A stretch of 16,858 bases of DNA. Origin: Ignavibacteriota bacterium (GTDB lineage Bacteria; Bacteroidota; Ignavibacteria; UBA10030; CAVZMI01). Under the pieces are notes generated by a model that did not search any database, was not told where the DNA came from, and was given only the letters and a program-made list of their open reading frames with translations. Below are positions 1,905-16,858 of this stretch, in pieces (position 1 is the first letter of the stretch; the number at the start of each line of letters is the position of its first letter). The translations under genes were made by a program, and so were the position numbers. The stretch spans positions 1 to 16,858 of the forward strand of contig CAVZMI010000024.1 of assembly GCA_963776275.1 (NCBI GenBank), written 5' to 3'.

Positions 1905-1947
1905 TGTGCCTCCTTCATGATTGAAATTAATATTTGAATCTGTACGC

Positions 1948-1976
1948 AGTATACTGAATTGAGGTGGTATTGTCAA
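1948..1976 (-). promoter_or_regulatory. Sigma70-type promoter for the T9SS-cargo gene
   Basis: Minus strand: TTGACA (1976-1971), 17-bp spacer, TATACT (1953-1948), about 45 nt upstream of the ATG at 1904. Confidence 0.7.
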
Positions 1977-2076
1977 GGATATAAGTCACGAAATCCTGTT
2001 GATGATGATCACAATCCCTTGCTTGTTATTAGGAAGATACTAAATTATAAAATAAAAATCATATTCGGAAAACCTC

Positions 2077-4539
2077 ATGAAAATTCTCAAATTTGGCGGG
2101 TCTTCGGTATCAAACGCAGAGCGTGTCCGGGAAGTGACACGGATCATTCTCGAATCGGCAAAGAAAGAACCTTTAATAATCGTTGTTTCGGCATTCCAAG
2201 GGATCACCAATCAACTTCTCGAATGCGCCGCGCTTGCCGAAGCCGGCAATCCGACATATGGAAAGCTGTATACGAAGATCGTGAAACGACACGAATCAAT
2301 GATCTCGTCGCTATTCAAAAATCATAGAAACAGAACGCTTGAATCAGAGATTACCCAGTTACTGGGCGAGTTGCACGACGTTCTTCATGGTATCAATTTA
2401 CTCCGCCATGCCCCTGAGCGATCGCTCGACCTGACAGCCAGTTTCGGGGAACGTCTCTCGACGCTCATTCTCTCGGCGTTCATCAATGTAAAACGGACTT
2501 CAGTACCCGTTGATACCCGCGATATGATTATTACCGACGATCAATTTACGCATGCGGCAGTTCAATTCGACAAAACAAATGTCGCAATCCGCCGGTATTT
2601 TAATCGTCTCTTCGCACATAAGAAGCGTTTACCGATTCCTGTTGTGACGGGATTCATTGCTTCCACGGAAGATGGAAGAACCACAACTCTTGGCCGGAAC
2701 GGCTCGGATTATACCGCTGCAATCATCGGAGCAGCGATGCATGCTTCGGTCGTAGAAATCTGGACTGATGTTGATGGTGTAATGAGCGCCGATCCCCGCG
2801 CTGTTCCTTCTGCATTTGTCATTCCGAGGCTATCGTATGAAGAGGCGATGGAAATGTCGTTCTTCGGTGCAAAGGTGCTGCATTCGGCTACTATCGCACC
2901 TGCGGTTGCGGAAAAAATTCCGATTCTCATTAAAAATACGTTGAATCCTTCGGCGCCCGGGACGTTGATCTCAGAAAGTGCCGAAACCTGGGAGGGAAGC
3001 GCCAAAGGAATGAGCTCGGTCGATCAGGTGTCGCTCCTGACCGTACGCGGTCTCGGAATGGTGGGGGTCCACGGGACGGCCGAACGATTGTTTCGGGCGC
3101 TTGCGACGGCGGGGATCAATATCATCCTGATCTCGCAGGCTTCCTCGGAACATACCATCTGTTTCGCCGTCTCGAGCGCAGATACCGATCGGGCAAGTGA
3201 AGCGATCCGAAACGAATTTCATTATGAAGTCCAGAACAATCTAACGGTGATCGATGTTAGAAAGGATCAGACCATCATTGCCGTAGTCGGTGAAAATATG
3301 CAGGGAACGCCGGGAGTGTCGGGCCGCGTCTTCAGCGCGGTCGGCCGAAATGCGATTAACGTTAATGCAATCGCACAGGGAGGATCGGAGCTGAATATTT
3401 CGTTTGTGATCGATGGATCGCAGCGCGTCCGTGCGTTGAACGTCGTCCATGAAGCATTTTTCGAAAAGAGGAAGAAGCTCGCACTGATTATCATCGGAGT
3501 CGGCAATATCGGCTCAACGCTGTTGAAGCAGTTGCATCAACAGAGAAAATTTTTAATCGAGAATGGATTCGACGTGCGCGTATGTGGTATTTCCAACAGC
3601 AAGCAGTATGTTTTGTCAAATGAAGGCATCGATCCTGGAGAATGGAGAAAAGCTCTTGATACTTCTCCCTACCGGTTCAATCCGGATGAGTTTATAACCC
3701 AGATAACAAAAATGGAATTAACAAACGCAGCGCTGGTCGATTGTACGGCAAGCTCGGAAATTGTCGACCGGTATCCTGACTTTGTCCGCGCGAACATGCA
3801 CATTGTGACTCCAAACAAAAAGGCGAATGTGCTTCCATGGAAACGGTATCAGGAGCTTATGGATGTTCTAAGGAAGCGGCAAAAATTCTTTTTCTATGAA
3901 GCGAATGTCGGTGCCGGACTTCCGGTTATCTCCACACTTCAGGATCTGATGGCCAGCGGCGATACGGTCATAAAAATCGAAGGAATATTTTCAGGAACTC
4001 TTAGTTATATCTTTAATTGCTATGATGGGAGCCGGCCCTTCAGCGCACTCTTACGTGAAGCGCACAAACTCGGATATACCGAGCCCGATCCGCGTGACGA
4101 TCTCTCAGGTCAAGATGTTGCACGAAAGATTCTTATTCTGGCGCGTCAGCTTGGACTCCAGATGGATCTCGATGATATTTATATTCAGAATCTGGTGCCT
4201 CCACGATTGCGGAACGGAAAATTCTCGATGGATTTTTTCAAGTCACTTCGTGACACCGATGCGGCCTTCGAACGCCTCCTCTCCGAGGCACGTTCACACG
4301 GCTCGATACTCCGCTATGTAGGATGGCTTTCGAATGGAGCGGCCCGGGCCGAGATCAAAGAATATCCGTCGAATCACCCCTTTGCGTCGACGAAGGATAC
4401 CGATAATATCATTGCGTTTACGACACAGCGCTATGCAAAGACTCCTCTTATCATACAGGGACCGGGAGCAGGAGCAGACGTGACGGCGATGGGAGTGTTC
4501 TCGGATATCAGGAAGCTGCTGTATTATCTTCCATTCTGA
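2077..4539 (+). CDS. thrA: Bifunctional aspartate kinase / homoserine dehydrogenase I
   Basis: 820 aa. It has the N-terminal KFGGSSV, TTTLGRNGSDYTA and WTDVDG aspartokinase motifs, two ACT domains, the GVGNIG Rossmann motif, and YEANVGAGLP, GYTEPDPRDDLSG and GPGAGADVTA homoserine dehydrogenase motifs. Confidence 0.96.
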   Translation: MKILKFGGSSVSNAERVREVTRIILESAKKEPLIIVVSAFQGITNQLLECAALAEAGNPTYGKLYTKIVKRHESMISSLFKNHRNRTLESEITQLLGELHDVLHGINLLRHAPERSLDLTASFGERLSTLILSAFINVKRTSVPVDTRDMIITDDQFTHAAVQFDKTNVAIRRYFNRLFAHKKRLPIPVVTGFIASTEDGRTTTLGRNGSDYTAAIIGAAMHASVVEIWTDVDGVMSADPRAVPSAFVIPRLSYEEAMEMSFFGAKVLHSATIAPAVAEKIPILIKNTLNPSAPGTLISESAETWEGSAKGMSSVDQVSLLTVRGLGMVGVHGTAERLFRALATAGINIILISQASSEHTICFAVSSADTDRASEAIRNEFHYEVQNNLTVIDVRKDQTIIAVVGENMQGTPGVSGRVFSAVGRNAINVNAIAQGGSELNISFVIDGSQRVRALNVVHEAFFEKRKKLALIIIGVGNIGSTLLKQLHQQRKFLIENGFDVRVCGISNSKQYVLSNEGIDPGEWRKALDTSPYRFNPDEFITQITKMELTNAALVDCTASSEIVDRYPDFVRANMHIVTPNKKANVLPWKRYQELMDVLRKRQKFFFYEANVGAGLPVISTLQDLMASGDTVIKIEGIFSGTLSYIFNCYDGSRPFSALLREAHKLGYTEPDPRDDLSGQDVARKILILARQLGLQMDLDDIYIQNLVPPRLRNGKFSMDFFKSLRDTDAAFERLLSEARSHGSILRYVGWLSNGAARAEIKEYPSNHPFASTKDTDNIIAFTTQRYAKTPLIIQGPGAGADVTAMGVFSDIRKLLYYLPF

Positions 4540-4584
4540 GGCGATAAGGAAAAGAATCAAATAATGTCTATATGGCATTTGGTC

Positions 4585-4695
4585 AAGGAAAAAGTGAAAA
4601 GTAAAAAGTAAAAAGTGAAGTGGAGAAAGTGAAAAGTAAGGATTTTTTCTCGCACATTTTCACACTTTTTCCTTTTGCCGTTTACCTTTTTACTT
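4585..4695. repeat. Gene-less inverted heptamer-array element with 33-bp arms (4585-4617 and 4663-4695). It forms a hairpin and may double as the thrA terminator.
   Basis: Left arm AAGG-AAAAAGT-GAAAAGT-AAAAAGT-AAAAAGT-G. Right arm CACTTTTTCCTTTTGCCGTTTACCTTTTTACTT. The arms are 26/33 complementary. They match the arms around 9749-10096 at 30/33 (left) and 31/33 (right). Confidence 0.85.
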
Positions 4696-4741
4696 AAGCT
4701 ATAGCCAAAGAAAAGGTTACAGACGAATTTCATCTTTTTTA

Positions 4742-4770
4742 TTGTTATATTTCCAGATAATATTTATAAT
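4742..4770 (+). promoter_or_regulatory. Sigma70-type promoter for the ABC transporter operon
   Basis: TTGTTA (4742-4747), 17 bp, TATAAT (4765-4770), upstream of GGAG (4787-4790) and GTG 4797. Confidence 0.55.
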
Positions 4771-4796
4771 CACATGCCACTTCCTTGGAGCGAAAT

Positions 4797-5828
4797 GTGA
4801 GCAACACGGTGAAGCCGTTGTTTCTCGGGCTGCTTTTTGTTTTCCTCGGTTGTTCTCAGCGTTCAGGAAACCAGCAGGTTACGATTCGCATCGGATACTT
4901 TCCCAACATTACACACTCGCAGGCACTCATCGGATTCTCAGCAGAACGCGGAGATTTTAAAAAAATTTTCGGTGATAGCGTCCGAATAGATCCAAAAATC
5001 TTCAACGCCGGACCCTCTGCAATCGAGGCGCTATTTGCCGGCGAACTCGATCTAGCTTATATCGGTCCGAATCCCTCGATAAACGGCTATGTGAAATCGC
5101 GTGGTGAGGCTTTACGAATTATTGCCGGCGCAACAAGCGGCGGTGCTGTGTTTGTCGCACGTCCCGGAGTGGCAATCAAAACACCGGCAGACTGGTCGGG
5201 CAAACGCGTCGCATCTCCTCAATTAGGTAATACGCAGGATGTCGCCCTCCGTTACTATCTTGTTTCGAACGGATTAAAAACAAGAGAAAATGGTGGGACG
5301 GTCACGATTATTCCTACTCAAAATCCCGATATTCTCACACTTTTTCACAAAGGAGAAATTGACGGCGCCTGGGTGCCGGAACCGTGGGGAGCCAGACTTG
5401 TGAAGGAAGCCGGCGGAACGATCATTCTGGATGAAAGGGATCTCTGGCCCGACCGGCGGTTTGAAACGGCAAATATCATAATCAGTACAAAATTTTTAAA
5501 TCAACATCCATTCCTGGTGAAACAATTTTTACTTACGCATGTTCAATTAACGCAATGGATTAACGCTCACCCGTCGGAAGCGAAATCAATCGCGAATGCG
5601 GAAATACGACGCCTCACGGGTAAAGCATTAAGTGCCGAAGTGCTTGAGAACGCATGGCAGCGGTTTGATTGTACGTATGATCCCATTTCGGCCTCGCTCT
5701 ATGTTTCAGCAGACCGGGCGTTTGTACTCGGATATCTAGGAGACACAAAACCGGATCTCTCCGGAATTTTCGATCTCCGATTGCTCAATGAAGTACTTGA
5801 CGAATTAAATCTACCGCCCGTTCAATGA
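4797..5828 (+). CDS. ABC transporter substrate-binding lipoprotein, SsuA/TauA/NrtA-like (sulfonate/nitrate/taurine class)
   Basis: RIGYFPNITHSQAL, FNAGPSAIEALFAGELDLAYIGPNP, PQLGNTQDVALR and WVPEPW motifs. Lipobox FLGC. GTG 4797 is preferred over TTG 4785 because GGAG lies 6 nt upstream. Confidence 0.88.
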   Translation: MSNTVKPLFLGLLFVFLGCSQRSGNQQVTIRIGYFPNITHSQALIGFSAERGDFKKIFGDSVRIDPKIFNAGPSAIEALFAGELDLAYIGPNPSINGYVKSRGEALRIIAGATSGGAVFVARPGVAIKTPADWSGKRVASPQLGNTQDVALRYYLVSNGLKTRENGGTVTIIPTQNPDILTLFHKGEIDGAWVPEPWGARLVKEAGGTIILDERDLWPDRRFETANIIISTKFLNQHPFLVKQFLLTHVQLTQWINAHPSEAKSIANAEIRRLTGKALSAEVLENAWQRFDCTYDPISASLYVSADRAFVLGYLGDTKPDLSGIFDLRLLNEVLDELNLPPVQ

Positions 5829-6607
5829 ATCTAATCATACAAAATATCAGCAAGTCATTTTCAAGCCGAAACGATCGAATCGATGCTTTAAAAAATATAT
5901 CGTTCAATGTTGCATCGGGTGAATTTGTATGTCTTCTCGGACCATCGGGGTGCGGTAAGTCTACTCTCTTGAATATCATTGCCGGGTTGGAACAACCCGA
6001 TTCAGGCTTTGTGTATTGTGACAGTCGCGTTGTGACCACACCAAGTACAGACCGTATAGTGATATTTCAGGAGCCTGCGCTTTTTCCGTGGCTGAGGGTC
6101 GTCGAGAATGTTGAATTTGGATTGACCGTCAATAAGATGCCGCCCAAAAAACGCCGGGAGGTAGCTCAGAGGTTTCTATCCATGGTACATCTCTCCCGTT
6201 TTCAACATGCGGCAATCCATGAGCTGTCGGGCGGGATGAAACAAAGGGTTGCGCTTGCCAGGGCGCTTGCCCTCGATCCGGCGGTGTTATTGATGGATGA
6301 GCCGTTCGGAGCCCTCGATGCACAGACACGCGACCTGCTTCATATCGAACTCCAGGAGATATGGGAATCGACAAAAAAAACCATTGTCTTTGTAACACAT
6401 AACGTCCGGGAAGCGATTCGTCTGGGCGATCGCGTTCTTGTGATGTCGGCGCGGCCCGGATTTATCAAACGTGAATTTATTGTCAACCTTCCGCGGCCAA
6501 GGCAGATGGAAGACCACGGACTCGTCGATACCGCGCGGTTAATCCTCGCTGAACTGCGAGATGAAGTTAATCGAGCACTGGCAGAGGAGGTGAATGGTGA
6601 AGCGTAA
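5825..6607 (+). CDS. ABC transporter ATP-binding protein, SsuB/TauB/NrtD-like
   Basis: Walker A GPSGCGKST, Q-loop FQEPALFPW, signature LSGGMKQR, Walker B LLMDEPFGALD, H-loop VTH. ATGA overlap with the upstream gene. Confidence 0.93.
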   Translation: MNLIIQNISKSFSSRNDRIDALKNISFNVASGEFVCLLGPSGCGKSTLLNIIAGLEQPDSGFVYCDSRVVTTPSTDRIVIFQEPALFPWLRVVENVEFGLTVNKMPPKKRREVAQRFLSMVHLSRFQHAAIHELSGGMKQRVALARALALDPAVLLMDEPFGALDAQTRDLLHIELQEIWESTKKTIVFVTHNVREAIRLGDRVLVMSARPGFIKREFIVNLPRPRQMEDHGLVDTARLILAELRDEVNRALAEEVNGEA

Positions 6608-7367
6608 TGCTTATCCACGTCGCTGGCTTTCTCCGGTTTTTTTTACGGCTTTGATTATCCTCTGGCAGGTCTTATATCAACTTCAACTCTGGCCTGTATA
6701 TCTTTTTCCCTCACCGGCCGATGTAATATCAACTCTTCTAAACGGTGTATCGAACGGGACGATCTTACAAGGTGTCGGTGCAAGCCTCTGGCGTCTCCTG
6801 ATAGGTTATATGATCTCGCTGGCTATCGGTATCCCGCTCGGGTTTGCATCCGGGCGGATCAAGAGATTTGATCAGACGGTAGGAAAGCTTCTCCTGGGAC
6901 TCCAGACACTTCCGAGCATTTGTTGGCTCCCGCTCGCACTTCTATGGTTTGGATTGAACGAACGTGCAATAGTGTTTGTCGTCGTTATGGGAGCTGTTCT
7001 CTCTATCGCACTCTCGGCGCGCGACGGCGTCCAGAGAGTCAGTCCTCTTTACCTCAGGGCTGCAACCAACATGGGTACAAAAGGATGGAATCTCCACGCC
7101 AGGGTTATTTTTCCTGCATCACTTCCCTCCATCGTCACCGGCATGAAACTCGGCTGGTCGTTCGCCTGGCGGTCGTTAATGGCAGGTGAGTTGTTATATG
7201 GTAATACCGGACTCGGTCAGCTCTTGATGATGGGGCGGGAGCTTAATGACATGAGTCAGGTCATTGCCATCATGCTTGTGATTGTTCTCCTGGGAGTTCT
7301 AACAGACCGCATCGTGTTTGCCCCGGTTGAACGTCGAATGCACGAACGGTGGGGACTTGGCCAATGA
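6594..7367 (+). CDS. ABC transporter permease, SsuC/TauC/NrtB-like
   Basis: Multiple hydrophobic helices, FPSP, LQTLPSICWLPLALLWFG and the EAA-loop-like YLRAATNMG...VIFPASLP. SD GAGGAGG upstream. Confidence 0.92.
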   Translation: MVKRNAYPRRWLSPVFFTALIILWQVLYQLQLWPVYLFPSPADVISTLLNGVSNGTILQGVGASLWRLLIGYMISLAIGIPLGFASGRIKRFDQTVGKLLLGLQTLPSICWLPLALLWFGLNERAIVFVVVMGAVLSIALSARDGVQRVSPLYLRAATNMGTKGWNLHARVIFPASLPSIVTGMKLGWSFAWRSLMAGELLYGNTGLGQLLMMGRELNDMSQVIAIMLVIVLLGVLTDRIVFAPVERRMHERWGLGQ

Positions 7368-8488
7368 ATGACCTTCATCTCTGTTTCATTCTCGATTCCT
7401 ACCCTCCGGCGATCGGTGGGGCAGAGACCTCTCTACAAAACATTTGCGAAGGACTCGCGCAGCGGAATTTTGATGTTGTTGTAATCACGGCCTGGTTCGG
7501 TGGAAATGGACCGGCTATAGAAAAGAGCGAAGGTCTTACCGTCGTCCGCCTCAGGATTCCTCGACTCCTTCGCCGGTTCTGGTTCGTTCAGCAGGCAATT
7601 CCCGCCATTCTCAGATATGCACGCAATTCTGATATCGTGGTCGGCAGCACTTACGGTGGTGTGCTCCCGGCTTTCCTTGGTTCTATTCTTCTGAAAAAAA
7701 AACGTGTGATGATGGTGCATGAAGTAATGAGGCACCGATGGTTCCGCTTTGAAAAAAATCCGCTGAAAGCTTTTTTTTATTATTTAACCGAGAAAATTCT
7801 CATCTGGCTTCCGTTTCAGAGAGTAGTTGCTGTATCGGAATATACGCGTAATGAATTATTGCACATGGGTATGAAGGATGAAGCTATCGATGTCATATAC
7901 CATGGAATGCCAGACGGTGGAGCGAAACCTATTAGAAATCGCGATGAGGTTCGTGCATCGCTTGGATTCGGGAAAGGCGATTTTCTCTATCTTGCCTACG
8001 GCCGCCTGGGCGTTACGAAAGGCTTTCAGTATCTTGCTCGTGCGATACCGGAGATAATACGACAAGTGCCTCAAGCCAGATTTTTATTGGTTTTTTTTGA
8101 CTATGATCGGCGGATCCGGCGTGAAATAAGGAAGGCTCTGGTAAAAGTCACATCGAACTCATACAGGCTATTTGATTCTGTCCCGCGTGAATTGTTAATT
8201 GATTATATCCATGCAGCAGATTGTGTGGTGATACCGTCGCTTTCGGAGGGATTTGGTTTTGCAGCACTTGAAGCATGCGCGGCAGGTACACCGCTCGTTG
8301 CGACAAAAGCCGGCGCTCTACCTGAGGTTGTGTACGGTCGTCATGTATTTGTTGAACCAGCTTCGGTCGAACAGCTTACGGAAGGCTGTCGGCAGGTGTT
8401 CGAAGGTAGGACTTTGTATTCCGAACCGAAAGATTTTCGTTGGGAAACATCGATTGAGAAATGGGAGATAATGTTTCGATCATTGTAA
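7364..8488 (+). CDS. Glycosyltransferase family 4 (GT-B)
   Basis: YPPAIGGAE N-terminal motif, GRL...KG, and SLSEGFGFAALEA (EX7E). ATG 7364 forms an ATGA overlap with the permease stop, so it is preferred over 7349. Confidence 0.92.
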   Translation: MNDLHLCFILDSYPPAIGGAETSLQNICEGLAQRNFDVVVITAWFGGNGPAIEKSEGLTVVRLRIPRLLRRFWFVQQAIPAILRYARNSDIVVGSTYGGVLPAFLGSILLKKKRVMMVHEVMRHRWFRFEKNPLKAFFYYLTEKILIWLPFQRVVAVSEYTRNELLHMGMKDEAIDVIYHGMPDGGAKPIRNRDEVRASLGFGKGDFLYLAYGRLGVTKGFQYLARAIPEIIRQVPQARFLLVFFDYDRRIRREIRKALVKVTSNSYRLFDSVPRELLIDYIHAADCVVIPSLSEGFGFAALEACAAGTPLVATKAGALPEVVYGRHVFVEPASVEQLTEGCRQVFEGRTLYSEPKDFRWETSIEKWEIMFRSL

Positions 8489-8526
8489 CAAGACGAGAGA
8501 TATATCATGATACAAAATACAATGCT

Positions 8527-8614
8527 GAGGAACAGGAAAAGGTGGAGGAAAAGGTAGAGGAAAAGTTTATCCCGAGCGAGTGAACGTAGTGAACGAGTCG
8601 AGGGGGTAAAGGGG
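8527..8614 (+). repeat. Left arm of cassette 1: purine-rich hexamer array (nAGGnn), interrupted by a 40-bp insert
   Basis: GAGGAA CAGGAA AAGGTG GAGGAA AAGGTA GAGGAA AA[insert 8565-8604]GGTA AAGGGG. AGG recurs every 6 nt. Confidence 0.75.
8565..8604. repeat. REP-like imperfect palindrome inserted in the hexamer array
   Basis: GTTTATCCCGAGCG-AGTGAACG-T-AGTGAACG-AGTCGAGGG. Removing it restores the 6-nt register of the flanking array exactly. Confidence 0.6.
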
Positions 8615-8616
8615 AG

Positions 8617-8979
8617 ATGTATAAATCTTTTAAAGAAATGCCGGTTTGGAAAGAAGCAATGTCGATTGCAGAGGAAGTGTTCCGGATTACAGAACAACTT
8701 CCTAAGAAAGAAGATTATGGATTAACCTCGCAAATCCGAAGATCCGCCTTGAGTATCTCCGCGAATATAGCAGAGGCATATGGACGTAAACACTCTCTTG
8801 ATAAAAGAAAATTTTATTATACAGTCAGAGGGTCAACGACAGAAACACAAAACCACTTGGAATACGGATTGCGTGTTGGTTATTTTAGTAGAATTCAAAT
8901 CGAAAATCTCGATAAACGATTGTGTCGAGTGTACAATGATCTAAATAAAATCGTTGTAACCCTAAAATCTTTACCTTAA
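8617..8979 (+). CDS. Four-helix-bundle protein (23S rRNA IVS protein / TIGR02436-like, Avd-related), copy 1
   Basis: 120 aa with family motifs F.EM.VW..A, LP..E.YGLTSQIRRSALSISANIAEAYGR and RGS..ET...L. Confidence 0.92.
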   Translation: MYKSFKEMPVWKEAMSIAEEVFRITEQLPKKEDYGLTSQIRRSALSISANIAEAYGRKHSLDKRKFYYTVRGSTTETQNHLEYGLRVGYFSRIQIENLDKRLCRVYNDLNKIVVTLKSLP

Positions 8980-9004
8980 CCTTAACCTTAACCTTTACCT
9001 TTCC
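8970..9004 (+). repeat. Right arm of cassette 1: (T)TWACC hexamer array, inverted relative to 8527-8614
   Basis: TTTACC TTAACC TTAACC TTAACC TTTACC TTTCC. It has five ACCTT units and contains the TAA stop of the four-helix-bundle gene. Confidence 0.85.
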
Positions 9005-9005
9005 A

Positions 9006-9542
9006 ATGCCATCGAAACAGCGCTCTTTCGTTCTATGGTTCACAGGACTTCCCAGCTCGGGGAAGACTACGCTGGCTAACTCTATCTATCGGTGGTTGAA
9101 GAGATACGGCTATAAGGTTGAGCGACTCGACGGCGATTCGATCCGTAAGGTATTTCCGCAAACCGGTTTTGACAAGAAATCACGTGATGAACATATCCGG
9201 AGGATCGGATATATTGCTTCGATTCTTGAGCGAAACGGGATTACTGTCATCGCATCGTTTGTGTCTCCTTATCGTGAGTCGAGAGATTTTGTCCGGGAGA
9301 TCTGTAAACATTTTATCGAAGTCCATGTTGTCGCTCCAAGCGAAGTCTGTGAGAAACGAGACTTGAAAGGATTATATCGCCGGGCACGCAGCGGCGAAAT
9401 CACGAATTTTACGGGCGTGAACGATCCTTTTGAAGAACCGCTCAAACCCGAATTGGTGGTGAGAACCGACACGAAATCGAAGAGAGCATGTGTGAAAGAA
9501 ATCACCGGATATCTCAGACAACATTATAAGATAAAACCTTAA
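9006..9542 (+). CDS. cysC: Adenylyl-sulfate (APS) kinase
   Basis: [13 protein letters not shown]-loop, [42 protein letters not shown]. Confidence 0.96.
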
Positions 9543-9557
9543 CCTTAACCTTTATCC
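9535..9557 (+). repeat. Second (AACCTT)3 array at the cysC stop, a direct repeat of the cassette-1 right arm
   Basis: AACCTTAACCTTAACCTTTATCC. It contains the cysC TAA at 9540-9542. Confidence 0.8.
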
Positions 9558-9561
9558 ACTA

Positions 9562-9712
9562 ATGACCCATTTAGACAGATTAGAAAGCACTTCCATCTAT
9601 ATTCTTCGCGAAGCCTATGCGATGTTCCATAACCTCGGTATGCTGTGGTCGATTGGTAAAGATAGCGAATCATGGAGGATTGGAGAAGTTACCTAGAGAT
9701 GGCTACATGTAA
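9562..9712 (+). pseudogene. cysD: Internally deleted cysD copy: first 35 codons joined out of frame to the last ~14 codons
   Basis: 9562-9666 matches 10157-10261 at 98/105 nt ([19 protein letters not shown]...SIGKDS). 9669-9712 matches 10995-11038 at 35/44 nt ([12 protein letters not shown] vs [12 protein letters not shown]). About 730 nt are missing. The frame from ATG 9562 stops at TAG 9694-9696 (44 aa). Confidence 0.9.
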
Positions 9713-9743
9713 GGAAAAAGTAAAAATTAAAAAGGAAAAAGTG
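9711..9743 (+). repeat. Left 33-bp heptamer arm of cassette 2
   Basis: AAGG-AAAAAGT-AAAAATT-AAAAAGG-AAAAAGT-G. It begins inside the TAA of the cysD remnant. Confidence 0.88.
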
Positions 9744-9748
9744 ATTAT

Positions 9749-10096
9749 ATGACAAGAGACTTGAGTGAACGTATATTCAAGTTCATCATACGGGTGATTT
9801 TGTTACTTCGGAAATTGCACAATGATGCTGAATCACGGAATATCAAACAACAACTCATCCGAGCCGCGACATCGGTTGGTGCGAATTATGAAGAAGCCCA
9901 GACAGCATCGTCTCGTGCAGATTTTAGGAATAAAATCAATATTGCTTTAAAGGAAATACGCGAGGTGCATTACTGGTTAAAAATAATTGCCGCTCTCGAG
10001 AAAATAGAAAATGCCGAGCTTCGAGAAATAAAGTCTGAAGCGAAAGAATTGATGCTAATATTTGGTTCCATTGCGACGAAAGTATCAAAAAAATGA
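9749..10096 (+). CDS. Four-helix-bundle protein (TIGR02436-like), copy 2
   Basis: 115 aa with QLIRAATSVGANYEEAQ.ASSRADF.NK.NIALKE.RE..YWL. Confidence 0.92.
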   Translation: MTRDLSERIFKFIIRVILLLRKLHNDAESRNIKQQLIRAATSVGANYEEAQTASSRADFRNKINIALKEIREVHYWLKIIAALEKIENAELREIKSEAKELMLIFGSIATKVSKK

Positions 10097-10108
10097 TTAA
10101 ACGAACAG

Positions 10109-10141
10109 CACTTTTACCTTTTGCCTTTTACCTTTTTACTT
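10109..10141 (+). repeat. Right 33-bp heptamer arm of cassette 2
   Basis: CACTTTTACCTTTTGCCTTTTACCTTTTTACTT. It is 26/33 complementary to 9711-9743. Confidence 0.88.
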
Positions 10142-10156
10142 GACCCTCTTCTGCTT

Positions 10157-11038
10157 ATGAGCCATTTAGACAGATTAGAAAGCATTTCCATCTATATTCT
10201 TCGCGAAGCCTATGCGACGTTCCACAACCTTGGCATGCTCTGGTCGATTGGTAAAGATAGCACGGTTCTCCTCTGGTTGGTTCGGAAAGCGTTTTTCGGA
10301 CATGTACCGTTTACATTGATTCACATTGATACCAGTTTCAAAATTCCGGAAATGATCCGATACCGCGATAAACTTGTTGAAGAACTCGGATTAAATCTGA
10401 TTTTTGGAATCAACGAAGAAGCGTTGAGAAAAAAACAAACGTTCCCCGACGGTCATGTGGACCACCTTGCATGCTGTAAAATCCTGAAGACCGACGCTCT
10501 CATCAATACAATTAACGGCACCTGGACGCGATACCGCTTCAACCGCACAACGAAAGTATATGAACCGGAGCATAATGGCGAACCGTTCGATGGAATCATA
10601 ACCGGAGCACGGGCCGACGAAGAGGGCTCACGGTCGAAAGAGCGCTATTTTTCAGCACGCGATGAAAAAAGCCAGTGGGATATAGCCGGCCAGCCGCCTG
10701 AATTCTGGAATTTTTATAAAACCGACTTTGCCCCGGGGACACATGTCCGAATTCATCCACTTCTTGATTGGACAGAACTGAACGTCTGGGAATATATCAA
10801 ACGTGAAAATATACCAACGGTATCGTTGTACTATAATAAAGGGGATGGGAAAAGATATCGTTCGCTCGGTTGTTATCCATGCACATTCCCGATCGACTCT
10901 GACTCCAGAACAGTCGATGAGATCATTGAAGAACTTAAAAGTGGAAAGCTGAAAAACGTCGCCGAGAGAAGCGGGAGAGCTCAGGATAAAGAAGATCAGG
11001 GGGGATTGGAAAGCTTACGAAGAGATGGATATATGTAA
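10157..11038 (+). CDS. cysD: Sulfate adenylyltransferase subunit 2 (293 aa)
   Basis: [23 protein letters not shown]-loop, [49 protein letters not shown], and a C-terminal GYM. ATG 10157 is chosen because 10121-10156 is largely repeat arm and the paralogous remnant starts at the equivalent ATG. Confidence 0.94.
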
Positions 11039-11069
11039 GGAAAAAGTAAAAATTAAAAAGGAAAAAGTA
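11037..11069 (+). repeat. Left 33-bp heptamer arm of cassette 3
   Basis: AAGG-AAAAAGT-AAAAATT-AAAAAGG-AAAAAGT-A. It starts inside the cysD TAA. 11033-11068 is identical to 9707-9742. Confidence 0.88.
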
Positions 11070-11074
11070 TTTAC

Positions 11075-11422
11075 ATGAAAAGAGATTTGGATGAACGAGT
11101 ATTCAATTTTACGATTAGGTTGATTTTATTTCTCCGCAAATTGCCAAATGATATTGAATTATGGAATATCAAACATCAGTTGATAAAGGCTGTGACTTCT
11201 GTTGGAGCTAATTATGAAGAGGCACAGGCGGCTTCTTCGCGTGCAGATTTCAAGAATAAATTAAATATTGCTTTGAAGGGGATACGAGAAACACATTATT
11301 GGATAAGAATCATCGGAGCACTAGAAAAAGTAAATAATGATGAAATCCGGGAACTTCAATCAGGAGCAAAAGAATTGATGTTGATCTTCGGATCAATTGC
11401 ATCGAAAGTATCAAAAAAATGA
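11075..11422 (+). CDS. Four-helix-bundle protein (TIGR02436-like), copy 3
   Basis: 115 aa with QLIKAVTSVGANYEEAQAASSRADF. It is 85/115 aa identical to copy 2, ungapped. Confidence 0.92.
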   Translation: MKRDLDERVFNFTIRLILFLRKLPNDIELWNIKHQLIKAVTSVGANYEEAQAASSRADFKNKLNIALKGIRETHYWIRIIGALEKVNNDEIRELQSGAKELMLIFGSIASKVSKK

Positions 11423-11457
11423 ATTCATCAATACGTGATACTTGTACTGCTAAAGAG

Positions 11458-12459
11458 TCAAGTTAACAGTTTTTGAAATTGTTGTCGTAAAGCACTATGT
11501 TTAGATTTAAATACATCAATCGGAATAGCCCCTTTTTTAGCTAGTCCGAAGTGAGCACGTTGAAAATTATAATACCATAAATATTTATCAAGAGCTTGTT
11601 GTAACTCTGGAAGAGAATTGAAGAATCGAGTACGGAACATTGGTTGATAGAACTCTTCCAGGATTGTTCTTTGAAAACGTTCACAGGTGCCATTAAGGAT
11701 CGGCTTGCCTTTGGGTATTCGATTGTGCTTGATATCATAAGCAGCAAGCATACGCTGGAATTGACTGCCGGTGAACTCAGTGCCATTATCCGTCAGTACA
11801 TACTCGAGATTGATACCGTTGTCGTAGAACTTCGGGATAAGCACATTTTCGACCAAATCGATCGTTGCTGATTGATCTTTACGAGTGTAGAGTTTTGCCC
11901 AGCCATAGCGAGAGCACAGATCAATACCAGAGATCTGGTAGATTCGTCCAACACGCTTGAGATGACCCACGTAAAAGGTATCTAGAGCGACAATATGCCC
12001 CGGCCAGAGTCCTTCATTGACTTTGTTGATCTGACGTTTCATCACGCGTAACGTTTGTTCGGTCAATGGTCGGTTGTCCATACGAGCACGTTCAAGATAG
12101 ACCAATCGTTGATAGCGACGATTCAGACCAAAACGCTTTAGGTGGTACCAGAGCGCCACATGAGTAACGGAAATGCCTTGCTGTTGAAAAATATAGGCAT
12201 ATCGTCGTGGTCCCCATGCTGGATGTTCTTGGACGAGTTCTAGTAAGAGTTTTTTCTTGCTCAGTGCCATCTCATTGGGCATTTTAGGCTTTCGTCGTAC
12301 CTTTGGAGCTAATGACCCTGTTTTGATGAACTGTGCTTTTATTTTGTAGAAGCTCGTTCGGCTCATCCCAAAAGTACGGCATGCTTGGCTCACACCGTGA
12401 CGTTCAGCGTAGATTAATAACGATCGACGCTGGTTAATGATCAGATCGTCTGTGGTCAT
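11458..12459 (-). CDS. IS481-family DDE transposase (HTH + rve integrase core)
   Basis: N-terminal HTH (VSQACRTFGMSRTSFYK), HPAWGP, ALDTFYVG.LK.VGRIY (D), LTDNGTEF (D), NGTCERFQRT..EEF (E), YNFQRAH. Confidence 0.92.
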   Translation of the reverse strand: MTTDDLIINQRRSLLIYAERHGVSQACRTFGMSRTSFYKIKAQFIKTGSLAPKVRRKPKMPNEMALSKKKLLLELVQEHPAWGPRRYAYIFQQQGISVTHVALWYHLKRFGLNRRYQRLVYLERARMDNRPLTEQTLRVMKRQINKVNEGLWPGHIVALDTFYVGHLKRVGRIYQISGIDLCSRYGWAKLYTRKDQSATIDLVENVLIPKFYDNGINLEYVLTDNGTEFTGSQFQRMLAAYDIKHNRIPKGKPILNGTCERFQRTILEEFYQPMFRTRFFNSLPELQQALDKYLWYYNFQRAHFGLAKKGAIPIDVFKSKHSALRQQFQKLLT

Positions 12460-12533
12460 TGGAGATCTCCCGGTTGTCCTTGTGTCCTATCCAGACACAA
12501 GTATACGACAACTCGAAGGTCCTTCCAATGACC
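12454..12533 (-). promoter_or_regulatory. Long hairpin covering the transposase SD and start codon
   Basis: Nested inverted segments: GGTCATTGGA/TCCAATGACC (12454-63/12524-33), GTTGTC/GACAAC (12473-78/12507-12) and CTTGTGTC/GACACAAG (12479-86/12494-501). Confidence 0.7.
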
Positions 12534-12591
12534 TTCATTTCAAAGAACAGTTAACTGATGTGTGTAAACACATCTCCTTAATAATACATGA

Positions 12592-12624
12592 TACTTTTTA
12601 ATTTTTCCTTTTTACTTTTTCCTT
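12592..12624 (+). repeat. Right 33-bp heptamer arm of cassette 3, displaced by the IS
   Basis: TACTTTTTAATTTTTCCTTTTTACTTTTTCCTT. It is 29/33 complementary to 11037-11069. Confidence 0.88.
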
Positions 12625-12638
12625 GAGAAAGAACCATT

Positions 12639-14444
12639 TTGACGGAAAACCATCTAAATATCATCGTTGCCGGCCATGTCGATCATGGAAAGAGCACAAT
12701 AATCGGCCGTCTTCTCGCTGATACCGGCTCTTTACCTGACGGGAAGCTCGAGCAGGTGAAGACCTTGTGCGAGCGCAACTCTAAGCCGTTCGAATATGCA
12801 TTTCTGATCGATGCTCTTAAAGATGAGCGTTCGCAGGGCATTACTATCGATGCCGCACGCGTGTTTTTCAAGACTGAAAAGAGGCATTACATTATTATCG
12901 ATGCGCCGGGACATATCGAATTTTTGAAAAACATGATGACTGGGGCATCGCGGGCCGGGGCGGCAATACTGGTGATCGATGCTTCGGAAGGCGTTCAGGA
13001 GAATTCGCGGCGGCACGGCTATCTGCTTTCAATGCTGGGGATACGTCAGATTGCTGTCGTTATTAATAAAATGGACATAGCCGGCTACCAAAAAGAGGTG
13101 TTCGATACGCATGTGAAAGAGTTTTCGCTATTCCTTGAAACGATAGGAATTCGCGCTGTGAATTTCATTCCGGTCAGCGGCTGCAGGGGAGATAACATAG
13201 CAGCGAGAAGTGCCGCGATGAAATGGTATACAGGGGCGACAGTGCTTGAGGCTCTTGATACATTCGAGGAATCAAAAACTCCGCTGGATCTTCCATTCAG
13301 GTTCCCGGTTCAGGATGTTTATAAGTTTACGAAATATAACGACACCCGCCGGATTATCGCCGGCACGGTTTCTTCAGGTTCAATCCGTCCGGATGACGAA
13401 ATTGTCTTTTATCCTTCGGGGAAGAGGAGCAGAGTAGCAACCATCGAGGTATTCAATGCTCCCCTGACGCAGCTCGCCTGCACAGATTCGGCAACCGGTT
13501 TCACCCTCAAGGAACAGATCTATGTCACACGCGGTGAAATAGCTGCAAAGGTTGGAGAACCGCCCCCGCAGATTTCGTCACGACTGCACGTCAGTCTCTT
13601 CTGGATGGCAAGACGCCCGCTTTCCGTCGGGAAACAATATCTTTTGAAATGCGGAACGACAAAGACTCATATGCAGATAGAGGAACTGATAAAAGTCATC
13701 GATGCTTCCGATCTTCATACATTGTCCGTTCAGAACTTTGTGGAACGGCACCAGGTTGCCGAGTGTGATATGAAATTGGAGAAGGCGATTGCGTTTGATC
13801 GTGTCGGCGATGTAGCAGGGACGGGGCGGTTCGTCGTCGTGGATGAGTATGAAATAGCCGGAGGTGGTATAATTCTCGATACACTTGAGGATCAACAGGC
13901 TTTTGTACGCGAGAAAGTTCTCACCCGTAATATCAAGTGGGAAAAAAGCACTATCCCGTCAGAAGTTCGCGCCGAACGTTTTAAGCAAAAACCGGCTTTG
14001 ATTCTGATCACCGGTAAAAAGAACAGCGGTAAAAAGCCGCTCGCACGGGCACTGGAGAAAAAATTGCTCGAGGGTGGATATCATGCATATTTCCTCGGGA
14101 TCGGGAATATATTATACGGAGTCGATGCAGATATCAAAGGAATTCATGATGACAGGTACGAGCATATCCGGAGGCTGGCGGAAGTCTCCAATATTCTTCT
14201 GGATACCGGCATAATACTTATAGTCACCGCCATTGATCTTCACACGAACGAAATCGATCTAATTCGGATGACGTGTAATGAATATGAAACCATGACAATC
14301 TGGGTTGGTGAGAGCGGAACTCCCGTATTGAACTTTGATATTGCAGTTTCAAGCAACACGCCGATCGATGCAACAGTCGAAAAAATTCTTCAAGATCTTA
14401 AGACGAGATTATTCAGTGCAGGGGAAGGAAATTATCATAGCTGA
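12639..14444 (+). CDS. cysN: Sulfate adenylyltransferase subunit 1 (GTPase) with a degenerate C-terminal APS-kinase-like domain (CysN/CysNC type)
   Basis: [36 protein letters not shown]......TGRFVVVD....GGG. The C-terminal [14 protein letters not shown]...SGK...[15 protein letters not shown] is CysC-like. It lies next to cysD. TTG start. Confidence 0.88.
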
Positions 14445-14467
14445 AAGAGATTAAAAGGGTTTATGCA

Positions 14468-15274
14468 TTGAGAATCGTGGCTATAATGACAGTAAGAAAT
14501 GAAGAACTCTATCTCCCGAGAGTGTTAGAGCATCTATATAATCAGGGAATTGAGGTTTGTCTGATTGACAACGGATCAACGGATTCGAGTTTGGAAATTG
14601 CCCGCGAGTATCTCGGAAAGAGAATAACGAGAATTGAACAGTTACCGTACACGGGGGTCTTCGAGTGGAGGGAAGTCTTACGGCACAAGGAGAGATTGGC
14701 AAAAGAGATCGACGCGGATTGGTACATCCATCACGATGCTGACGAAATCCGGGAAGCTCCCTCGCCGACGTATACGACCCTGTACGAAGGAATTTACAAC
14801 GTTGATCGGATGGGGTATAACGCAATCGACTTCGATGAATTCGTCTTCACGCCGACAACCGATGAAGAGCACTTCGAAGGGACAGATTATGTCAACGAGA
14901 TGCGGTATTACTATTTCTTTCAACCCGGGCCACTACGACGGGTGAATGCCTGGAAGAATCTGCGGAGGAGAATCGATTTGAAAAACTGGGGAGGACATCA
15001 GATTCTTTTCAGGGGTCGCAAAATATATCCGGAGAAATTCATTCTGCGGCACTATATTATATTGAGTAGAGCTCATGCAATAAAAAAATACGGAGAGAGG
15101 GTCTATTCAAAATATGAAGTTGAAAAATTGCATTGGCATATAGGCCGTACCGGATTTCAGATCGATCATCTGAATTTCCCAAAAAAGGAAAATCTTTGCT
15201 GTATCGACACGGACTATTGGGATCGATCACATCCGCAGCGGGACCATCTTTTTCTCCATAGGAATATCGGGTGA
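14468..15274 (+). CDS. Glycosyltransferase family 2 (GT-A)
   Basis: AIMTVRNEE.YL...LEH, IDNGSTD, W.IHHDADE (DxD), GGH...ILRHY. TTG start. Confidence 0.88.
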   Translation: MRIVAIMTVRNEELYLPRVLEHLYNQGIEVCLIDNGSTDSSLEIAREYLGKRITRIEQLPYTGVFEWREVLRHKERLAKEIDADWYIHHDADEIREAPSPTYTTLYEGIYNVDRMGYNAIDFDEFVFTPTTDEEHFEGTDYVNEMRYYYFFQPGPLRRVNAWKNLRRRIDLKNWGGHQILFRGRKIYPEKFILRHYIILSRAHAIKKYGERVYSKYEVEKLHWHIGRTGFQIDHLNFPKKENLCCIDTDYWDRSHPQRDHLFLHRNIG

Positions 15275-16059
15275 TGAAAAACGTTCCTGTTATCATCGGT
15301 GGTTTTTATCGTTCAGGCACCAGTCTCCTGCGGAGATTATTCGATGCACATTCTCAAATTCATTGCAGTCCGGAGATAAAGTTTTTTAATGATTTTTACG
15401 GGAGGTATCTTCACGACGATCTGAACCATATACGGTTCTTTACGACTCTTCGATCGATCGGATTGGATGAGGGTACACTGCTGGAGATATTCGGGAAGGC
15501 GTACATTAAAAGTCATGAGGAAGCCGCGCGAAAATTCGGGAAAAGGATCTGGGCCGATAAAAATCCGGAAAATGTTCTCTTCCTGGAACAATGGCAGAGT
15601 CTCCTGCAGGGACAATTCGTTTTCATTCACGTGATCAGGCATCCCCTGGATGTGATGGCATCGTTGCTGGAAGTACGGTTTGAAAAAACGATACAGACGG
15701 ATTTTAAGGACAAAGTGTTACTCTATAAGCATTTTGTGGAATGCGGTCTTGAATTCTCCGCACGATATCCTGAACAAAGTCATGAAGTGCGTTATGAATC
15801 TCTGATCTCCGATCCGGAGTCCACTCTGAAAATTCTTCTCGATTCGCTGGGATTGGAGTATGAACCGGTCATGGTAACGGGATTCAACAGTCCTCAAAGA
15901 CAGGAAGGTATTGAAGATCCAAAGATTTATTCGACAAAGACAATCCACACACGGAGCATCGGACGCTGGAAAAAAGATTTAGCACCAAGACACATCAGGG
16001 TTGTGCGATCGTTGCTCTCCGAGCTTGCCCGAAAACTTGGTTACGAGCTTTCGTCATAA
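15271..16059 (+). CDS. PAPS-dependent sulfotransferase
   Basis: 5'-PSB motif IGGFYRSGTSLLRRLFDAH, WADKNP.N, 3'-PB motif IRHPLDVMAS, RYESLISDP, SIGRWK. The start is either GTG 15271 or ATG 15274. Confidence 0.92.
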   Translation: MMKNVPVIIGGFYRSGTSLLRRLFDAHSQIHCSPEIKFFNDFYGRYLHDDLNHIRFFTTLRSIGLDEGTLLEIFGKAYIKSHEEAARKFGKRIWADKNPENVLFLEQWQSLLQGQFVFIHVIRHPLDVMASLLEVRFEKTIQTDFKDKVLLYKHFVECGLEFSARYPEQSHEVRYESLISDPESTLKILLDSLGLEYEPVMVTGFNSPQRQEGIEDPKIYSTKTIHTRSIGRWKKDLAPRHIRVVRSLLSELARKLGYELSS

Positions 16060-16090
16060 CTATTCTCGTTCTCTCGAGAGGCATCGCTGT

Positions 16091-16858
16091 ATGGATACAT
16101 GGATGAGGAACGGACCGGTTGTAATCGGCGGTGTGGGGGGCAGCGGTACCAGAGTCGTCGCAGAGATATTACGCGAGGTCGGATTCTATCTGGGAGCCGA
16201 TTTAAACTTGGCGTTGGATAATCTTTGGTTTACCCTGTTGTTGAAACGGCCCAGGTTGTTTCATAAAAAAAGCGCTTTGAAAGTCGAGGTATGCCGGGGT
16301 TTTTCAATCCTGGAGAAAATAATGAAAGGCGAGTCCGGATTATCATGGCGTGAGTATAAATTTTTGATCTCTGCGATCAGTGAAATGATGGTTTTTGGCC
16401 ATGACTATCTTCGGGCTGGCAAAGGCTGTTGGCCTTTGAAGCGTGCTATATCCATGTTATCAAAGAATAGATTGGCCTTGAGGGATTATATCGGTTGGGG
16501 TTGGAAAGAACCGAATACACATATTTTCATTGAGTATTTGGCTGAGTATTTCAGCAATTTAAAATATATTCATGTCATCAGACATGGTCTGGATATGGCC
16601 TATCACAATAATCAATCCCAATTATACAATTGGGGAAGTCTTTTTGGAGTAGAAAAGCCAAAGACTTTGAAAGATCTTCCCGTTGCTTCTCTTGAATATT
16701 GGATCAAAGCGAATCAAAAAGCCATCCGGCTGGGTAAAAATATTTTGAATGAGCGATTTCTACTGATTAACTTTGACCAGCTATGTGAAACCCCTAAAAT
16801 TGAGGTAGAAAAAATTCTTACTTTTCTGGAATTTCAAACTAACGATATTGATTTTATT
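16091..16858 (+). CDS. Second sulfotransferase-family protein, 3'-truncated by the window edge
   Basis: Manual translation from ATG 16091 (GAGAGG upstream): MDTWMRNGPVVIGGVGGSGTRVVAEIL...WGWKEPNTH...HVIRHGLDMA...NFDQLCETP. It stays open for 256 codons to the window end and is not in the ORF track. Confidence 0.85.
   Translation, partial: MDTWMRNGPVVIGGVGGSGTRVVAEILREVGFYLGADLNLALDNLWFTLLLKRPRLFHKKSALKVEVCRGFSILEKIMKGESGLSWREYKFLISAISEMMVFGHDYLRAGKGCWPLKRAISMLSKNRLALRDYIGWGWKEPNTHIFIEYLAEYFSNLKYIHVIRHGLDMAYHNNQSQLYNWGSLFGVEKPKTLKDLPVASLEYWIKANQKAIRLGKNILNERFLLINFDQLCETPKIEVEKILTFLEFQTNDIDFI

Follow-up and report, generated by a model that had tools for sequence, protein, structure and literature searches.

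The stretch of DNA analysed here (the window) is a whole 16.9-kb contig (G000:C24) from the genome of an uncultured Ignavibacteriota bacterium (G000), and it carries a cysC-cysD-cysN locus, which is an operon supplying 3'-phosphoadenosine-5'-phosphosulfate (PAPS) for sulfation. Three small genes encoding four-helix-bundle (4HB) proteins are set into this locus, each between two tandem-repeat arrays, referred to as arms, with which the gene forms a cassette; the arrays and gene of each pair fill the whole intergenic spacer. The order on the + strand is a GT4 glycosyltransferase gene (7349-8488), cassette 1, cysC encoding adenosine 5'-phosphosulfate (APS) kinase (9006-9542), a cysD remnant, cassette 2, cysD (10157-11038), cassette 3 and cysN (12639-14444), the four complete genes having been assigned by profile search; a GT2 gene and then sulfotransferase genes lie downstream of cysN. 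The initial annotation had placed three co-oriented 4HB open reading frames (ORFs) at the GT4/cysC, cysD-remnant/cysD and cysD/cysN junctions, each with a purine-rich array upstream and a complementary pyrimidine-rich array downstream; the ORFs were confirmed by Pfam and TIGR matches and the arrays were found in all three cassettes.

The products of 4HB-1 (8617-8979, + strand, 120 aa), 4HB-2 (9749-10096, + strand, 115 aa) and 4HB-3 (11075-11422, + strand, 115 aa) are members of the PF05635/TIGR02436 family (S23p, Avd-like four-helix-bundle proteins), with scores of 108.5, 72.9 and 64.5 bits for PF05635 and 105.3, 87.8 and 77.7 bits for TIGR02436, all above the curated cut-offs of 33.8 and 24 bits, respectively. 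PF05635 was the only family returned by a Pfam scan of the three proteins. To our knowledge, this very common family has no known function outside diversity-generating retroelements (DGRs). In sequence matches to solved S23p-type structures, 4HB-1 corresponded to PDB 2GSC (E 1.3e-17) and 4HB-3 to PDB 2RLD (E 2.2e-16), each deposit containing 5 chains. Four comparisons gave ratios of nonsynonymous to synonymous substitution rates (dN/dS) of 0.07-0.34, indicating functional 4HB proteins under purifying selection: 0.34 for 4HB-1 and its ortholog in the same-genus genome G001 (dS 0.205), 0.16 for the 4HB gene at C28:64919 (contig and position in G000) and its G001 ortholog, 0.07 for 4HB-2 and 4HB-3 (74% aa identity, dS 2.18) and 0.07 for 4HB-1 and the gene at the cysD/cysN junction of G001 (74% aa identity, dS 2.4). 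With a dS of 2.2, 4HB-2 and 4HB-3 are old paralogs, and cassette 2 is therefore not a recent tandem copy of cassette 3.

The upstream arm of cassette 2 (9711-9743, + strand) is made of [GG/GT/TT]AAAAA heptamers and its downstream arm (10109-10141, + strand) of CTTTTAC/CTTTTGC heptamers, while the arms of cassette 3 lie at 11037-11069, beginning inside the cysD stop codon, and at 12592-12624 (both + strand). Ungapped alignment reproduced exactly the 33-bp arm length and the 26/33 (cassette 2) and 29/33 (cassette 3) complementary positions given in the initial annotation, as well as the spacing of the mismatches, which fall at arm positions 4, 11-12, 17-19 and 26 in cassette 2 and 17-18 and 24-25 in cassette 3; they are about 7 nt apart because they are located on the variable dinucleotide of the heptamers. 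The upstream arms of the two cassettes were identical at 32/33 positions (compared by eye), and this near-identity despite an ORF dS of 2.2 suggests conversion between arrays or constraint on them.

Cassette 1 has the weakest complementarity of the three. Its upstream arm (8527-8565, + strand) is a purine-rich hexamer-type array of AGGAAA/AGGTGG/AGGTAG units, 12 nt (two units) shorter in G001 and in a metagenome contig (X1), and is followed by a leader running to the ATG (8566-8616, + strand), for which folding predicted a hairpin of its own and which showed, by eye, 1 difference in about 52 positions to G001, against a dS of 0.205 for the ORF. The downstream arm (8961-9004, + strand), composed of CCTTAA/CCTTTA hexamers (Tandem Repeats Finder, TRF: 8969-9001, period 6, 5.5 copies), overlaps the stop codon of 4HB-1 and ends 1 nt before the cysC ATG. 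The two arms are complementary at 30/49 positions without gaps and form a predicted duplex of -32.2 kcal/mol with bulges. TRF also detected a second CCTTAA array just after cysC (9535-9557, + strand; 100% identical to 8978-8997), which possibly serves as an alternative partner of the cassette 1 upstream arm, the computed duplex energy being -20.3 kcal/mol as against -32.2 kcal/mol with the arm's own partner. A longer solo array was seen at the corresponding site in G001 (locus L017, about 9770-9805), and a similar layout of one G-array and two C-arrays around a 4HB gene was seen in genome G044 (L068, 2383-3110).

Complementary arrays in the genome and the phylum

The whole genome contains 11 PF05635 matches, nine of them above the cut-off, and all nine genes were found enclosed by complementary arrays. 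Flanks were scored against control ORFs for seven of the nine, the other two being covered by a pair search or by arm alignment. The seven cassettes scored 34-52, the 95th percentile of 600 same-genome control ORFs being 33; cassettes 1, 2 and 3 scored 34, 36 and 50, values reached by 23, 9 and 0 of the 600 controls, respectively. The cassette at C21:227166 was recovered as an array pair with a score of 45 (control maximum 32), and the ninth, the pseudogene C32:34307, is bordered by complementary TGATTGA-type arrays (25/33). Outside the nine, the weak match C32:31651 (187 aa, 26.5 bits) has no visible arrays and a score of 35, reached by 17/600 controls, and a broken PF05635 copy, C27:41265 (24.7 bits), showed by eye arrays of reversed composition. 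At least six unit classes are represented (AAGGAAA/AAGTAAA/AATTAAA, AGGTAA hexamers, GGTTTCA, GTGAATA, TGATTGA and GAGGTCG-type), and both arms of any one cassette always belong to one shared class, which is a covariation-like signal.

The analysis was extended to the phylum, in which PF05635 was detected above the cut-off in 66/81 sampled genomes, with up to 19 matches per genome; in the control panel, Bacteroides thetaiotaomicron also gave a PF05635 match. Among 30 loci, one per genome, inverted arrays around the gene scored above the 95th percentile of 400 control ORFs at 20 and above the 99th percentile at 12, and G+C-rich unit classes were present at L040, L048 and L062. In six genomes of one family (L035, L039, L043, L044, L047 and L052), the best-scoring cassette appeared by eye to lie directly upstream of a thiolase-like gene. 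If this neighbourhood holds, some cassette positions would be stable over long times, with others turning over within a genus.

Arrays of this kind are by no means restricted to 4HB genes. In the genome, TRF identified 169 arrays with a repeat period of 5-8 and three or more copies, of which 52 had a complementary partner within 3 kb at a score of at least 28, compared with 5/169 when random distant DNA was searched. The 52 partnered arrays merged into 38 pairs. In 27 of these the loop measures 20-250 nt; it contains a tRNA gene in two cases and is free of genes in all others. The G-containing arm came first in 23/27 short-loop pairs, with the same polarity on either strand, and in any transcript the 5' arm would therefore be purine-rich and the 3' arm pyrimidine-rich. 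One ORF-less inverted pair lies within the window at 4585-4695 (TRF and pair search; arms 4585-4641 and 4655-4695, loop about 13-40 nt), between a thrA-like gene and an ABC binding-protein gene, and is of the AAGTAAA type, the unit class of cassettes 2 and 3. An Rfam scan of the window gave two chance-level matches only (E 0.08 and 0.46), both on this pair (4577-4695). Neither an intrinsic terminator (GC-rich stem plus U-tract) nor a promoter of the sigma-70 type was found at the cassette arms.

These data bear on the alternative that A/T-rich low-complexity spacers merely resemble complementary arms. Shuffled flanks of the same composition do still pair well, and cassette 1 stands only at about the 96th percentile of the controls. 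This explanation is nevertheless hardly credible, being already contradicted by the control ORF, array-partner and phylum tests: it would have to account for the enclosure of 9/9 genes, for six or more unit classes, with G+C-rich arrays at other loci of the phylum, for partnered arrays at 52/169 against 5/169, and for 20/30 phylum loci above the 95th percentile when about 1.5 are expected.

Several pairs retain traces of a gene or enclose other cargo. The ORF-less pair C15:171754-171930 keeps, within a 175-nt loop, the last 30 codons of a 4HB gene (73% identity, E 2.9e-12), and the pair C28:60044-61603 is a cassette remnant into which an IS3-type transposase has inserted and of which the 4HB C-terminus only is left; both are decayed cassettes of the C28:64919 type. 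A GTGAATT-type inverted pair just after a tRNA 3' end (G000:C21:240834-242323) surrounds an AbiEii toxin gene (PF08843, 136 bits), the only non-4HB protein cargo, other than insertion sequences (ISs), seen inside an inverted pair. The 4HB cassette at C21:227166 is itself located between tRNA-His and tRNA-Glu, i.e. in a stable-RNA context. The surrounding Arg, His and Glu tRNA cluster (G000:C21:224900-227700; L008) has array hairpins in every spacer, together with a disrupted tRNA-Arg copy, an IS copy and four tandem units of roughly 52 nt upstream of the 4HB gene; in G001 the Arg-His spacer carries hairpins of another unit class. At C28:65300-65360 (L002), and likewise in the G001 ortholog, the reading frame ends within the downstream array, whose AACCTGA heptamers supply the final 4HB residues and the TGA stop, so that a change of array length there could alter the 4HB C-terminus. 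A second repeated motif, CCCGAGCGAG / CTCGCTCAGGGCAAG, accompanied by small hairpins, recurs beside arrays and in the cassette 1 leader (8566-8616), at G000:C23:77640-77776 and in the loops of several ORF-less pairs, and in G001 a roughly 90-nt element with this motif breaks up an array (L029, about 2905-2995); it may be a separate repeat resembling a miniature inverted-repeat transposable element (MITE).

The idea that the arrays are an exclusive mark of 4HB genes thus had to be abandoned, given that ORF-less pairs number at least 27, that solo arrays are numerous and that pairs also surround tRNA genes, ISs and AbiEii. The cassettes belong instead to a genome- and phylum-wide class of array-hairpin spacers, the members of which may contain the gene, lack it or enclose other cargo. 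This raises the alternative that the arrays came first, as a slippage-born spacer feature with its own role in expression, and that the 4HB protein binds arrays and has its gene inside its own target, for example for autoregulation. Such an origin would suit the preponderance of arrays (169) over PF05635 genes (9-11), the number and consistent orientation of the ORF-less pairs (23 with the G-rich arm first), the way in which arrays abut stop and start codons and in one case supply the stop codon of the ORF, and the solo arrays that follow the cysD stop codon in several gene-less genomes. Avd, moreover, binds nucleic acid. Array systems have also been published for Xanthomonas (PMC4692102) and Beggiatoaceae (PMC4679880), as far as the available parts of these papers describe them. 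We nonetheless consider an arrays-first origin improbable as the whole explanation: it leaves unexplained why 9/9 family members lie inside inverted pairs that enclose almost no other protein genes (one AbiEii) and why gene and arms are exchanged jointly, and array binding by the 4HB protein is a postulate.

Turnover of cassettes between relatives

A site-by-site comparison of the nine cassettes of G000 with G001, in which CysD is 97% identical, showed 3/9 kept in place (cassette 1, C28:64919 and C32:34307) and 1/9 located at contig ends in G001, whereas 5/9 differed although their flanks were 93-97% identical. G001 lacks cassette 2 along with the cysD remnant. At the cysD/cysN junction, G001 has a different cassette, with a gene of the 4HB-1 subfamily and hexamer-array arms, and homology to the window stops exactly at the cysD stop codon (TAA vs TGA) and resumes four codons into cysN. 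In place of C21:152944, G001 carries solo pyrimidine arrays totalling about 90 nt; an inverted pair lacking an ORF takes the place of C23:12806, and the two tRNA genes that border C21:227166 are separated in G001 by 226 nt of unrelated DNA. Two metagenome DNA contigs matched positions 7349-14444 of the window, showing the G001-like layout plus scattered array matches, and these may share the source sample of G001; on one of them, X1, the layout is likewise without cassette 2 and the cysD remnant. Compared with G001, the arrays of G000 are of different length at cassette 1 and C28:64919; the two arms change in the same direction at both sites and show no clear trend at C32:34307, a number of cases too small to carry weight.

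The proposal that cassettes are discrete units is in agreement with these data: from one member of the genus to the other a cassette may be kept, missing or exchanged, and the elements are evidently gained, lost and exchanged as units. The accompanying expectation of precise empty sites in relatives failed: no array-free, clean empty site was found at the arm boundaries, gene-less sites still carrying arrays.

The cysD/cysN spacer was further surveyed in 201 genomes of the phylum, yielding 23 loci with a close cysD, 22 of which include the start of cysN. A PF05635 gene was present in 2/22 (G044 and G056), with CTGGCTA and CGAATAG-type arrays, so that with G000 and G001 the junction is occupied in 4/24 genomes by cassettes of four arm classes. 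Genome G052, a congener of G056 (cysD 92.9% identical), retains the upstream array and lacks both the gene and the downstream array; in several genomes without the gene, the cysD stop codon is followed by solo arrays. Four arm classes at one junction suggest repeated colonisation or in-place replacement; an enrichment at cysD/cysN is indicative only, because the sample started from an occupied site.

The cysD remnant (9562-9710, + strand) consists of the 5' 105 nt of the gene (9562-9666) joined to a stretch resembling the 3' end of cysD (9667-9710). Region 9544-9666 is 89% identical at the nucleotide level to 10139-10261, and tblastn gave 85% identity to CysD residues 1-41. Identity between the window and the G001 locus (L017) was 96% over 1-9666, 93.7% in cysD and 87.5% over 12650-15316; no match was seen for 15317-16098, and identity returned to 95% from 16099. 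The tract starting at the cysD remnant looks like an imported or recombined one.

Exchange on this scale could also be driven at the DNA level, with the inverted arrays acting as hairpin or cruciform sites or as portable homology for the insertion, deletion and exchange of cassettes; gene-bearing copies would then be the full members, ORF-less pairs their derivatives and any RNA stem a by-product. The differences at 5/9 sites between congeners, including the whole-cassette swap at cysD/cysN, the four arm classes in 4/24 occupied spacers, the ORF-less pair at the orthologous site of the gene-bearing C23:12806, the gene remnant inside an ORF-less pair and the 32/33 identity of upstream arms although the ORF dS is 2.2 all fit such an element, as does the lack of an excess of G·U mismatches described below. 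The machinery expected of it was not encountered. The initial annotation had stated that no transposase, recombinase or reverse transcriptase (RT) is encoded inside the arms apart from a secondary IS, and this was upheld, the IS481-like element being the sole other coding sequence; no recombinase, transposase or RT was found inside any cassette, and the whole genome (completeness 96%) gave 0 PF00078 matches for RT. The 115-120-aa helical bundle is without a known catalytic motif, the six or more arm classes are unlike ends recognised by a dedicated enzyme, and neither target-site duplications nor clean empty sites were observed, gene-less sites keeping arrays. We rate a purely DNA-level element as unlikely. 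A classical IS- or MITE-type transposable element was rejected: the cassettes are without a transposase of their own, without conserved ends (at least six unrelated arm classes) and without a visible duplication at variable sites.

The secondary IS481-like insertion sequence (11442-12588, 1147 bp, - strand) encodes a 333-aa rve transposase (11458-12459) and is placed between 4HB-3 and the downstream arm of cassette 3, on the strand opposite to 4HB-3, with a 6-bp target duplication, TGATAC, at 11436-11441 and 12589-12594. It is present in 4 copies in the genome, 3 of them directly beside AAGTAAA-type arrays, and its insertion here probably interrupts cysD-cysN co-transcription.

Proposed pairing of the arms in RNA

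The reading we put forward, and to which we give an even chance of being correct, is that the cassettes are inserts outside rRNA resembling rRNA intervening sequences (IVSs), the arms of which would base-pair within the transcript to give a stem of the RNase III type. A cassette would be transcribed together with the operon. The purine-rich 5' array and pyrimidine-rich 3' array would then pair into a long, regularly interrupted A-U-rich stem looping out the small 4HB ORF, as in ORF-bearing 23S rRNA IVSs, and cleavage of this stem by RNase III in the mRNA would release the 4HB message and split the flanking cistrons. Such a cut would make the insert tolerable and may affect expression of the neighbours.

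Minimum-energy folds are consistent with this reading, the flanks being paired by 21-51 bp in 7/9 folded cassettes, and four cassettes (46, 51, 42 and 38 pairs) exceeding the maximum of 37 among 150 control ORFs; a gene for RNase III is present in the genome. The original proposal of discrete units with a long-range RNA stem is supported in part, namely as regards the units, the arms on family members and the folds, and not as regards the exclusivity of the arrays and the clean empty sites.

A number of observations weigh against RNA pairing as the basis of the cassettes. Flank-to-flank pairing is common, with at least 15 pairs in 30.7% and at least 20 pairs in 20% of the control ORFs, and cassettes 1, C23:77777 and C23:12806 (21-29 pairs) are unexceptional in folding because 20% of the controls reach 20 or more. 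The arms are imperfect (61-88% complementary without gaps), and of 178 mismatches in 31 cassettes 107 are neither of G·U nor of A·C type; the remainder comprise 42 G·U and 29 A·C mismatches (p = 0.15). No signature of selection for sense-strand RNA pairing was detected. The upstream arm of cassette 2 pairs better with the downstream arm of cassette 3 (-26.0) than with its own (-18.8), complementarity being largely a property of the unit class, i.e. class-specific and not partner-specific. Shuffled downstream flanks paired nearly as well as the native ones (7 cassettes, 100-nt flanks, z -1.3 to -2.9), and duplex energies with 100-nt flanks are non-discriminating because composition alone pairs well. 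In the phylum test 10/30 loci were at or below the 95th percentile of control ORFs, and one of these ten, L045, carries direct, not inverted, arrays beside a gene whose protein has a bAvd match below threshold (29.8 bits, cut-off 40). To these may be added the arrays that stand solo or around other cargo, and a search of RNA runs for positions 7349-14444 of the window that returned none carrying the locus.

The DNA-level and arrays-first explanations fit the turnover data at least as well as RNA processing does, and both are compatible with it. A broader model would unite array hairpins and 4HB genes in one two-tier system. Cassettes with a gene would be its autonomous members, encoding a pentameric protein able to recognise the periodic, interrupted stem as RNA or DNA; ORF-less pairs would be non-autonomous derivatives, and the rRNA IVS a special case that happened to be noticed first. 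We regard this combination as rather doubtful at present. If true, the elements would settle again and again in operon spacers, tRNA clusters and rRNA helices, and preferred sites such as cysD/cysN would reflect a targeting rule.

Comparison with known systems

The closest described relatives are the ORF-bearing IVSs of 23S rRNA, which RNase III removes without the rRNA being re-ligated. In the available parts of PMC4990558, the Coxiella burnetii 23S IVS is described as carrying an S23p ORF preceded by heptameric repeats that vary in number; its ends are inverted repeats, and the 28-bp stem that these make is cleaved by RNase III. ORF-bearing IVSs in Leptospira and others are cited there. The cassettes similarly have a PF05635 ORF between complementary termini forming a stem (here in silico). 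As in the part of the Coxiella IVS description available, the ORF is preceded by arrays of short direct repeats differing in copy number, their lengths varying between G000 and G001, and, like 23S rRNA IVSs as portrayed there, the cassettes are sporadic among relatives and encode no mobility enzyme. In contrast to 23S rRNA IVSs, the host transcript would be that of an mRNA operon (elsewhere a tRNA cluster), three cassettes occur in one operon, both arms are tandem 6-7-nt arrays giving a regularly interrupted stem, and ORF-less versions are numerous. At the sequence level, then, the cassettes appear to share every feature of the Coxiella IVS, as far as the available text gives them, except the host RNA. 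A strict rRNA IVS was ruled out, the cassettes being placed between protein-coding genes and not in an rRNA helix; the 23S gene of this genome (C27:78245-81320, 3076 nt) contains none of the 11 PF05635 matches and only small expansions in the part of the alignment examined.

As to the arrays, the available parts of the respective papers report GGGAATC arrays genome-wide in Xanthomonas, with 70-75 convergent (inverted) pairs (PMC4692102), and TAACTGA repeats in Beggiatoaceae, cyanobacteria and some Bacteroidetes (PMC4679880). By the Xanthomonas-type definition of many 6-8-nt intergenic arrays, part of them in close inverted pairs, the present genome belongs to the same kind. The arrays studied here resemble those of both papers, in the portions available, in being intergenic tandem heptamers of variable copy number that often abut start codons and sometimes form inverted stem-loop pairs, and are unlike them in that several unit classes occur side by side in this one genome, with a particular gene family inside the pairs; those portions of PMC4692102 and PMC4679880 do not connect arrays with PF05635 genes, the terms "S23" and "four-helix" being absent. 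Comparable repeat arrays are the short tandemly repeated repetitive (STRR) sequences of cyanobacteria.

Two other classes invite comparison. In repetitive extragenic palindromic (REP)/REPIN systems with a flanked REP-associated tyrosine transposase (RAYT) gene, and in MITEs with their parent IS, a gene is flanked on its two sides by a repeat in opposite orientations, and further copies of this repeat are scattered elsewhere with no such gene. The cassettes are similar in having gene-less intergenic hairpin copies genome-wide and a quick turnover, and dissimilar in encoding a small helical bundle and not a transposase, in using several unrelated tandem-array classes and in the absence of visible target duplications. 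Avd, the accessory protein of DGRs, is a homologous four-helix-bundle protein according to the available parts of PMC10053308. The cassettes were rejected as a DGR component, as no RT was found in the genome and cys genes flank the cassettes; template or variable repeats were not observed next to the 4HB genes.

In the main texts searched, mostly from openly accessible journals, no paper was found linking PF05635 genes outside rRNA with inverted arrays. If these genes are always packaged in array hairpins that are cut in RNA, the rRNA IVS would be a single instance of a general class of inserts found in polycistronic as well as in stable RNAs. Many bacterial heptamer arrays so far unexplained would gain a candidate origin or partner, and operon spacers would carry a movable RNA-processing module able to uncouple neighbouring genes. 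Set against the known systems, the known kind is the rRNA IVS, and what is new here is that IVS-like cassettes occur outside rRNA and form part of a larger system of array hairpins.

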